From the NCBI RefSeq assembly GCF_003334785.1, contig NZ_QOWV01000029.1: 25,956 bases of DNA; one strand, 5' to 3'. Below are positions 9,129-9,481 of this stretch, in pieces. The translations under genes were made by a program, and so were the position numbers. The DNA comes from Escherichia coli (GTDB lineage: Bacteria; Pseudomonadota; Gammaproteobacteria; Enterobacterales; Enterobacteriaceae). The notes beneath the pieces are model-generated. The model made no database searches. It saw only the letters and a program-made list of their open reading frames with translations, and was not told the origin of the DNA. Numbering within the stretch: position 1 is the first letter of the stretch; every line of letters starts with the position of its first letter.

Positions 9129-9149
9129 AAAGTGAAATTTCTTCACTTT
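9129..9149. promoter_or_regulatory. Palindromic operator copy 1: AAAGTGAA-N5-TTCACTTT
   Basis: Perfect 8-bp inverted repeat arms, 5-bp spacer. Confidence 0.5.
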
Positions 9150-9168
9150 TTCACACTTATTTTTCGCG

Positions 9169-9195
9169 TTGATTTGGTGATTATGATGATAAAAT
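9169..9195 (+). promoter_or_regulatory. Promoter of the HTH gene: TTGATT - 15 bp - extended -10 TGaTAAAAT
   Basis: -35 at 9169-9174, TG at 9187-9188, -10 TAAAAT at 9190-9195; flanked by the two palindromes. Confidence 0.45.
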
Positions 9196-9216
9196 AAAGT
9201 GAAATTTTTTCACTTT
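9196..9216. promoter_or_regulatory. Palindromic operator copy 2: AAAGTGAA-N5-TTCACTTT
   Basis: Same arms and spacing as copy 1; overlaps the predicted transcription start, 14 bp before the ATG at 9230. Confidence 0.5.
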
Positions 9217-9229
9217 TTCAAAGGTATTT

Positions 9230-9481
9230 ATGACCGGCTGGGAACTGCGAATCTGGCGAAAAAGCATGCTCTGGTCACGCGAAAAAGCGGCCAGAGAATT
9301 TGGCGTGACGCAGAGAACATGGCACGCCTGGGAAAATGCGGAACAGGTGGACGTCACCGTCTGGAGGACCACCCAGGCACTTTCAGTCCGTGACCTGCTG
9401 CCTCACATGCAGGGGATGCGCAAGGCAGATATCATCAGACGACTGGAAAATGAACTGGGGGAAACGGCAGAGGATGTGTGA
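9230..9481 (+). CDS. Small helix-turn-helix (Cro/XRE-like) DNA-binding protein, 83 aa
   Basis: ORF directly after the operator pair; HTH-like segment SREKAAREFGVTQRTWHAWE. Confidence 0.65.
   Translation: MTGWELRIWRKSMLWSREKAAREFGVTQRTWHAWENAEQVDVTVWRTTQALSVRDLLPHMQGMRKADIIRRLENELGETAEDV

Follow-up and report, generated by a model that had tools for sequence, protein, structure and literature searches.

Twin palindromic operators at the promoter of ygeA, a small helix-turn-helix gene located within the leading region of IncI-type plasmids, as a probable autoregulatory switch

The stretch of DNA described here (the window) spans 25,956 bp of contig NZ_QOWV01000029.1 from an Escherichia coli genome assembly (GCF_003334785.1), and contains a gene encoding an 83-aa helix-turn-helix (HTH) regulator preceded by two palindromes, called O1 and O2 (Table 1). 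The region is 100% identical to the E. coli plasmid pWP7-S17-ESBL-04_2, and about 2,000 plasmids from Escherichia, Salmonella, Shigella and Klebsiella are more than 90% identical over it. Genes are annotated in the order nikB (-), nikA (-), oriT, yggA-like (+), DUF4942 (-), HTH (+), a 73-aa open reading frame (ORF) (-), Rpn nuclease (-), impCAB (+), and some 2 kb separate the HTH gene from oriT, on whose leading side it is found. The name ygeA, used below for the HTH gene, comes from records with R64-style names. The original prediction, made from the letters of the window, held that two near-identical palindromes 67 bp apart bracket an extended -10 promoter of a small HTH gene, and that the whole is a tightly autoregulated switch in a leading region, as seen for early-expressed repressors. 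The anatomical part of this description is correct. Both palindromes are exact, and their distance, start to start, is 67 bp. O1 lies upstream of the -35-like hexamer, O2 reaches from just past the extended -10 to about +15 (with +1 near 9202), and a gap of 13 bp separates O2 from the ATG. The downstream ORF is confirmed as an HTH gene by its matches to the Pfam families HTH_31 (E 1.2e-4) and HTH_3 (E 0.022).

Table 1. Features of the ygeA locus and of its surroundings (positions in the window)
Feature	Position	Strand	Sequence or match	Remarks
nikA	6820-7152	-		One side of oriT
yggA-like gene, first of the leading region	7280-7720	+		oriT between this gene and nikA
ygfB	7805-8656	-	DUF4942 (PF13708); methyltransferase-like	Hp22 of pESBL; divergent from the HTH gene
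Predicted ssi/Frpo-type single-strand promoter element	8701-9031	+ (hairpin in transferred strand)		80-81% identical paralogues
O1, distal operator	9129-9149		AAAGTGAAATTTCTTCACTTT, perfect palindrome AAAGTGAA-ATTTC-TTCACTTT	Centre at about -63 from the predicted start
-35-like hexamer	9169-9174	+	TTGATT	Weak, unconserved; 15-bp spacer to the -10
Extended -10	9187-9195	+	TGATAAAAT (TG-A-TAAAAT)	Between O1 and O2
O2, proximal operator	9196-9216		AAAGTGAAATTTTTTCACTTT, perfect palindrome AAAGTGAA-ATTTT-TTCACTTT	Over the predicted start (about 9202)
Shine-Dalgarno sequence	9221-9224	+	AAGG	5 nt ahead of the ATG at 9230
83-aa HTH regulator, Xre type	9230-9481	+	WP_000148285	'ygeA' of R64-type IncI plasmids; Hp21 of pESBL
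73-aa ORF	9512-9733	-	Only the C-terminal part of Rpn nucleases	
Full-length Rpn nuclease gene	9733-10704	-		73-aa ORF directly downstream

O1 and O2 are the sole matches to their pattern in the window in a search tolerating up to 3 mismatches. The number expected from shuffled sequence is 0.16, and two matches were reached in 1 of 100 shuffles. The heptamer AAGTGAA occurs five times in the window, and four of these copies are inside O1 and O2. No match at the O1/O2/ygeA locus was obtained in the Rfam search.

The association of the palindromes with the gene was surveyed in 37 homologous loci, the sources of which were plasmids and a set of genomes with a single representative of each species. 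The motif sought was AAGTG-N9-CACTT, one mismatch being allowed, in the 160 bp that precede the homologue. The motif is present in 27 of the 37 loci. Matches number 44 in the 5.9 kb of upstream DNA versus 9 in 246 kb elsewhere, an enrichment of about 200-fold, and several of the far-off matches are copies of O1 displaced by an inserted toxin-antitoxin cassette. O2 is the site found in every operator-bearing locus, and a -10-like hexamer abuts it in all of them (27/27). The 19-nt core of O2 begins 31-35 bp ahead of the ATG in most loci, and 43-65 bp ahead in seven. The second site, where present, is mostly found 55-57 bp upstream of O2 in other lineages, the distance being 67 bp in IncI and 64 bp in Hafnia. 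As an example, homologues 45-50% identical to the 83-aa protein are encoded at the same position as ygeA in Salmonella and Enterobacter plasmids, in the shared order relaxase, mobA/nikA, yggA-like gene, opposite-strand leading gene, GC-rich stretch, HTH gene. These homologues are preceded by twin AAGTGCA-N5-TGCACTT palindromes 56-57 bp apart, and TAAAAT abuts the proximal one.

Buttiauxella (loci L020-L022) has three operators, at -144, -88 and -33 from the ATG and thus 55-56 bp apart, and one identical mismatch (GCCCTT) is found in each of the two distal ones. A cassette made of a RelE/HigB-type toxin and an HTH antitoxin resides between O1 and O2 in certain loci of Yersinia, Rahnella and Enterobacter (L014, positions 2657-3500; L017, L033, L035 and L029), and O1 is shifted away by about 845-1120 bp. 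The inserted cassette carries twin TTCGTAC-N3-GTACGAA palindromes of its own. In distant subfamilies (L002, a pOXA-48-type plasmid, positions 4454-4473; L027, 850-864; L005, upstream of 4001) the HTH gene is found inside an operon, the promoter of which carries a different palindrome, either AATGTTCA-N4-TGAACATT or ATGCAGAATCTGCAT. In pOXA-48 the HTH gene adjoins a gene annotated as 'restriction endonuclease'.

The inner dinucleotides of the half-sites vary symmetrically among loci. CA/CA is found in 20 distinct operators, and AA, AC and TC variants occur as well. The inner bases follow the recognition helix of the adjacent protein: VTQRTWHAWE is found with AA, xSLRTYKxYE with CA, ISLRTYKRYE with AC or TC. 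Taken as comparative evidence, the survey strongly supports the notion that the 83-aa protein has its cognate operators in O1 and O2.

A footprint of conservation is apparent within the IncI lineage, when the window is taken as reference and compared with Salmonella variants in which ygeA has diverged to a synonymous distance (dS) of about 1.25, the ratio of nonsynonymous to synonymous change (dN/dS) being 0.08. Operators, -10 and leader are 86-93% identical, versus 34-41% for the sequences flanking O1. In detail, identity is 18/21 in O1, the left half-site being fully kept (8/8), 19/21 in O2, 8/9 in the extended -10 (8 or 9 of 9 according to the variant), and 13/14 in the leader (9217-9229) compared with L043. 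Only 15 of 37 positions (41%) are shared in the spacer from O1 to the -10, and 44 of 131 upstream of O1. The O1-O2 spacing of 67 bp is unchanged across the variants of the lineage. TGATA(A/G)AAT is kept in five of six IncI-lineage sequences, L008 having a one-base gap, and its TGAT core is invariant in all six. The -35-like TTGATT is replaced by unrelated sequence in L043 and L045.

Could the palindromes be sites for a host factor, such as CRP, or chance repeats in AT-rich DNA, unrelated to the gene? The GTGA...TCAC core resembles that of CRP sites, and the exact 21-mer is not exclusive to plasmids, as it was found in 61 contigs of a viral collection (2.9 million contigs), 57 of which lack a ygeA homologue (tblastn, E<=1e-3). 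Yet, the viral matches are almost all singletons in AT-rich contigs (median GC content 39%), and the only twin with the 67-bp spacing is in an IncI-like fragment which carries ygeA. Two of the 61 contigs are IncI-like fragments of this sort, and two more hold only weak, distant HTH matches. Half-sites which co-vary with the adjacent protein are likewise not what this explanation foresees. Searching the replicon for further copies of the palindrome, as the original prediction had advised, leads to the same result: the complete 107.5-kb IncI plasmid pS127 has exactly two perfect sites, both at ygeA, and weaker matches are at chance level. The palindrome thus does not behave as a member of a repeat family foreign to the gene. 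In CRP sites GTGA and TCAC are separated by 6 nt; they are 7 nt apart in O1 and O2, and a CRP site was rejected for this reason and for the co-variation with the protein. A host factor or mere chance is, all considered, a most improbable origin for O1 and O2. Among the viral contigs, L097 (1543-1622) and L071 (6986-7133) contain twin exact copies of AAAGTGAA-N5-TTCACTTT, 59 and 127 bp apart, respectively, and no recognisable homologue of the HTH gene was found near them. These twins could be due to chance, or be a convergent operator for an unrelated protein. A further viral contig, L065, was set aside as an unrelated Cro/CI-type pair.

The co-occurrence of operators and gene, the symmetric change of the half-sites and the IncI footprint sustain, as an inference from sequence comparison, the autoregulated switch of the original prediction. 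O1 and O2 are, with good probability, the cognate operators of the downstream 83-aa HTH protein, and together would make a negative autoregulatory switch. Several observations weigh against this conclusion. AAGTG-N9-CACTT is missing in 10 of the 37 homologous loci, in some of which the gene is in an operon or has a different palindrome. A consensus promoter scan, which needs a spacer of 16-18 bp, called no plus-strand promoter at the HTH gene, because the spacer is only 15 bp long, and the promoter therefore rests on the extended -10. In-phase looping between the operators is not obviously favoured, since the recurrent spacing (55-57 bp, typically about 56 bp, and 67 bp in IncI) is not a whole number of helical turns. 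Publications reporting binding, footprinting, start-site mapping or reporter assays of the 83-aa protein were looked for, and none was found. Finally, in transposon sequencing of pESBL Hp21 was non-essential for maintenance and transfer (PMC4288162), and there is no phenotype to which a function can be anchored.

The poor or absent -35 throughout the family is also what one would expect of a dual switch, in which the protein activates from O1 at low concentration and represses from O2 at high concentration, as do the controller (C) proteins of restriction-modification systems, or lambda CI at PRM, producing a pulse followed by a set point. The geometry of O1 is compatible with this view. Its centre lies at about -63 in the IncI lineage and at about -53/-54 in the class with the 56-bp spacing, and a difference of 10 bp keeps it on the same helical face. 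C proteins are, in addition, among the structural neighbours of the 83-aa protein. The distribution of the sites speaks otherwise. Seven loci (L010, L011, L013, L015, L018, L024 and L039) have the gene and O2, but no O1, and the gene has been retained where an insertion moved O1 about 845 bp away. The universal and best-conserved site is O2, not O1, whereas the strong site in C-protein systems is the distal one. A dual switch is consequently regarded as unlikely.

As modelled with confidence by AlphaFold2 (pLDDT 91), the 83-aa protein is a helical fold of the Xre/Cro-C1 superfamily, with helix 2-turn-helix 3 among its five helices (residues 3-12, 17-24, 28-35, 42-60 and 65-76). HTH_31 and HTH_3 profiles each match 14 of 29 members of the family at E<=1e-3. 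HipB, Aca2, SinR and C-proteins, which are dimeric repressors of the Xre type, are the neighbours of the model found by Foldseek, none at E<1e-3, as is to be expected of so small a domain. The family is small as well, as it includes 87 clusters (50% identity) at E<=1e-10 among 1.84 billion representatives, and is restricted to mobile elements of Enterobacterales. NCBIfam and PADLOC supply no curated family name apart from a marginal match to mad1, PHROGs only an unnamed family, and no characterisation of R64-type ygeA was found in the literature. A 'YgeA' of plasmid F is described (PMC9849209, PMC12672017), but it is not equated with the R64-type protein because it is reported to be induced early in transconjugants, beside genes with single-strand promoters, and the R64-type gene is on the opposite strand.

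The best sequence match of the 83-aa protein in the PDB is Aca2 of Pectobacterium phage ZF40 and relatives (PDB 7EZY, 7B5J, 7VJO). The match is weak, and involves residues 1-63 of the former and 1-66 of the latter, hence the HTH and helix 4, with E of 3.8e-5, 1e-3 and 8e-4 when a 6-sequence profile, a 29-sequence profile or the single sequence is used, respectively. Superposition of Aca2 on the model gives 34% identity over 56 aligned columns, and a root-mean-square deviation of 1.9 A. Similarly to the 83-aa protein as predicted here, Aca2 is a small HTH autorepressor which is encoded on a mobile element and whose own promoter has a pair of similar inverted repeats in and around it. The differences are marked. 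Aca2 is about 120 aa long and has a C-terminal dimerisation domain (PMC8434428), which the all-helical 83-aa protein lacks, the alignment to 7EZY ending at residue 66 of 125. The operator core of Aca2 is TTCG-N6/N8-CGAA, the inverted repeat IR1 being defined as TTCG-N6-CGAA (PMC6765145), in contrast to AAGTG-N9-CACTT at ygeA. Lastly, aca2 shares an operon with an acr gene and follows it, whereas ygeA is predicted to be monocistronic, as no ORF is found between promoter and gene, and the downstream genes are convergent. Judged by sequence, the 83-aa protein does not belong to the Aca2 family, since three of the features that define it, namely domain, operator and operon layout, are absent.

C proteins (C.AhdI, C.Esp1396I, C.BclI) are also Xre-type HTH proteins which have paired palindromic operators at their own promoter, and time expression after DNA has entered a new cell. 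However, ygeA has no co-transcribed restriction or methylase gene, its neighbours being the divergent DUF4942 gene and the convergent Rpn genes, and its operators differ in sequence, and are 67 bp apart rather than adjacent. The HTH fold is also that of HipB and other Xre-type antitoxin autorepressors, whose dimers occupy several palindromes overlapping the promoter. The neighbours of the 83-aa protein by sequence and fold include the antitoxins HipB and HigA, and both the Rpn gene and a stand-alone Rpn C-terminal-domain ORF adjoin the HTH gene, which may thus be thought of as the antitoxin or regulator of a neighbouring toxin, for instance of the Rpn nuclease and its 73-aa partner. In contrast to HipB and HigA, ygeA has no toxin gene in its operon, and no co-directional neighbour, and the syntenic homologues are monocistronic too. 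The Rpn genes are convergent, not co-transcribed with ygeA, and are absent next to the homologues in L003 and L004. A toxin-antitoxin role, rejected on gene orientation, has a minimal likelihood. KorA and KorC of RK2, and ArdK of IncW and IncN plasmids, are small global repressors which plasmids express on entry, and the absence of which in the recipient allows a burst of expression followed by self-repression. They control regulons with many operator copies; in contrast, the ygeA operators are only two per plasmid (pS127), both at the promoter of the gene.

The placement of ygeA in the leading region is borne out by the position of oriT between nikA and the yggA-like gene, and by the presence of nikB and nikA on the minus strand; yggA has been described as the gene with which the leading region of R64 begins (PMC6112013). 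In a complete IncI-gamma/K1 plasmid ardA, psiB, psiA, ssb, klcA and ygfB are oriented toward oriT, ygeA and yggA away from it. Genes pointing toward oriT are those transcribed from the incoming single strand (PMC12672017; PMC11541004), and the plus strand of the window is therefore the transferred strand. As the sense strand of ygeA is the transferred one, transcription of the gene has to wait until the complement has been synthesised. The likeness to early-expressed repressors consequently holds in part: the gene is indeed located in the leading region, but the single strand that comes in cannot serve for its transcription. Samuel et al. have reported an HTH family enriched in leading regions, with 2,333 members, median position 2 from oriT, strand -1 and a few members tagged aca6; in their data Rpn families are at positions 3 and 4 from oriT (PMC11541004). 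The HTH family, which is not taken up in the main text of the paper, is very probably the ygeA family, judged by its neighbours.

A plausible course of events can be outlined, assuming that O1 and O2 serve negative autoregulation. It follows from sequence and synteny that ygeA is silent during the entry of the plasmid in single-stranded form. After synthesis of the complement, the extended -10 promoter would fire in a recipient free of repressor. The protein, which presumably dimerises as other Xre/Aca2/HipB-type regulators do, would then bind O2 which, because it starts at the border of the -10 and extends over the start site, would allow the bound protein to exclude RNA polymerase. O1, 67 bp upstream, may add a second dimer which tightens or sharpens repression, possibly through cooperativity, looping, or occupation of the UP-element zone. 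In the established plasmid ygeA would idle, keeping its own expression low.

O1 and the DUF4942 gene are separated by 472 bp (8657-9128) of GC-rich, non-coding DNA. Folded as single-stranded DNA, the interval forms a long hairpin (-115.8 kcal/mol, z = -5.9 versus shuffles). Paralogues of its 8701-9031 portion, 80-81% identical, sit upstream of ssb and ygcA in pS127, and class 1 single-stranded DNA promoters (ssi1-3) have been reported in the IncI1 plasmid pESBL (PMC12672017). On the grounds of paralogues and predicted fold, the segment matches a copy of an ssi/Frpo class 1 single-strand promoter, which presumably would drive leftward transcription of the DUF4942 gene. The product of the latter, ygfB, gives a match to DNA methyltransferase-like proteins in PHROG.

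The HTH promoter and an ssi/Frpo-type element thus stand back-to-back, the boundary of the homology being about 100 bp away from the promoter. Such contiguity, the anti-CRISPR repressor Aca2 being the closest solved relative, raises the question whether the operators might also control ygfB or other anti-defence genes, so that the protein, made after double-strand conversion, silences the leading region as an Aca-like shut-off or insulator. Distant plasmids show the same succession of leading gene, GC-rich element, operators and HTH, and a minus-strand promoter-like match, detected in the same consensus scan, overlaps O2. The latter was rejected as a conserved feature, since its -10, TATCAT, reads TATCAC in L009 and pS127, while TGATA on the plus strand is invariant. 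Moreover, about 100 bp separate O1 from the ssi homology and 473 bp separate it from the start codon of ygfB, the divergent neighbour varies by locus (DUF4942, DUF932 or DUF5983), and the full plasmid pS127 has no operator near any other leading-region promoter. Single-strand promoters are, besides, reported to go silent unaided once double-stranded (PMC12672017). Control of neighbouring genes through O1 and O2 is accordingly held to be improbable. A further, doubtful proposal is that YgeA-like proteins are dedicated 'double-strand conversion' regulators of IncI-type and related MOBP plasmids. The protein, encoded on the strand that is unreadable during entry and back-to-back with a single-strand promoter, would in such a case be made only after synthesis of the complement, and would then, like its distant relative Aca2, shut off or insulate the anti-defence programme of the leading region, or retune host genes via chromosomal AAGTG-N9-CACTT sites, the twin operators working as a hand-over timer.

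On the other side of ygeA, the 73-aa ORF may represent the C-terminal domain of Rpn as a stand-alone copy. Between this ORF and the convergent HTH gene, at 9493-9513, there is a hairpin, AGCCTGGC-TGAAT-GCCAGGCT. Further downstream, the window differs from the IncI-gamma plasmid pS127, as about 12.8 kb of the usual leading region is absent at positions ~10956-10965. The absent stretch corresponds to pS127 34033-46817 and includes yfaB, a methylase gene, klcA, ssb, psiB, psiA, ardA and ygcA; at the deletion, the Rpn/ygdA side is joined straight to the impC side. The main anti-defence island has therefore been lost, and the ygeA switch retained. Rfam matches were obtained elsewhere in the window for the sok antitoxin RNA of a hok/sok module (1316-1473, minus strand, 134 bits) and for AgrB (603-690, plus strand, 57 bits).

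As far as sequence allows one to judge, the ygeA switch is almost certainly an uncharacterised member of a familiar class, that of small self-repressing HTH regulators. If the protein regulates only itself, the module is a tidy, ordinary autoregulatory one, and specialists would be surprised only if the regulation by ygeA proved to go beyond the gene itself. Plasmids of the IncI complex rank among the major carriers of extended-spectrum beta-lactamase (ESBL) and AmpC genes, and the very same module is present in more than 2,000 sequenced plasmids. The way in which single-stranded DNA supports the onset of leading-region expression is an active topic. ygeA is one of the few conserved leading-region genes pointing the 'wrong' way, now with a defined operator, and the 21-bp site and the 83-aa protein may provide a concrete handle on the transition from single- to double-stranded DNA. 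Its conserved place and orientation, beside a predicted single-strand promoter in clinically important plasmids, make the gene a reasonable experimental target.
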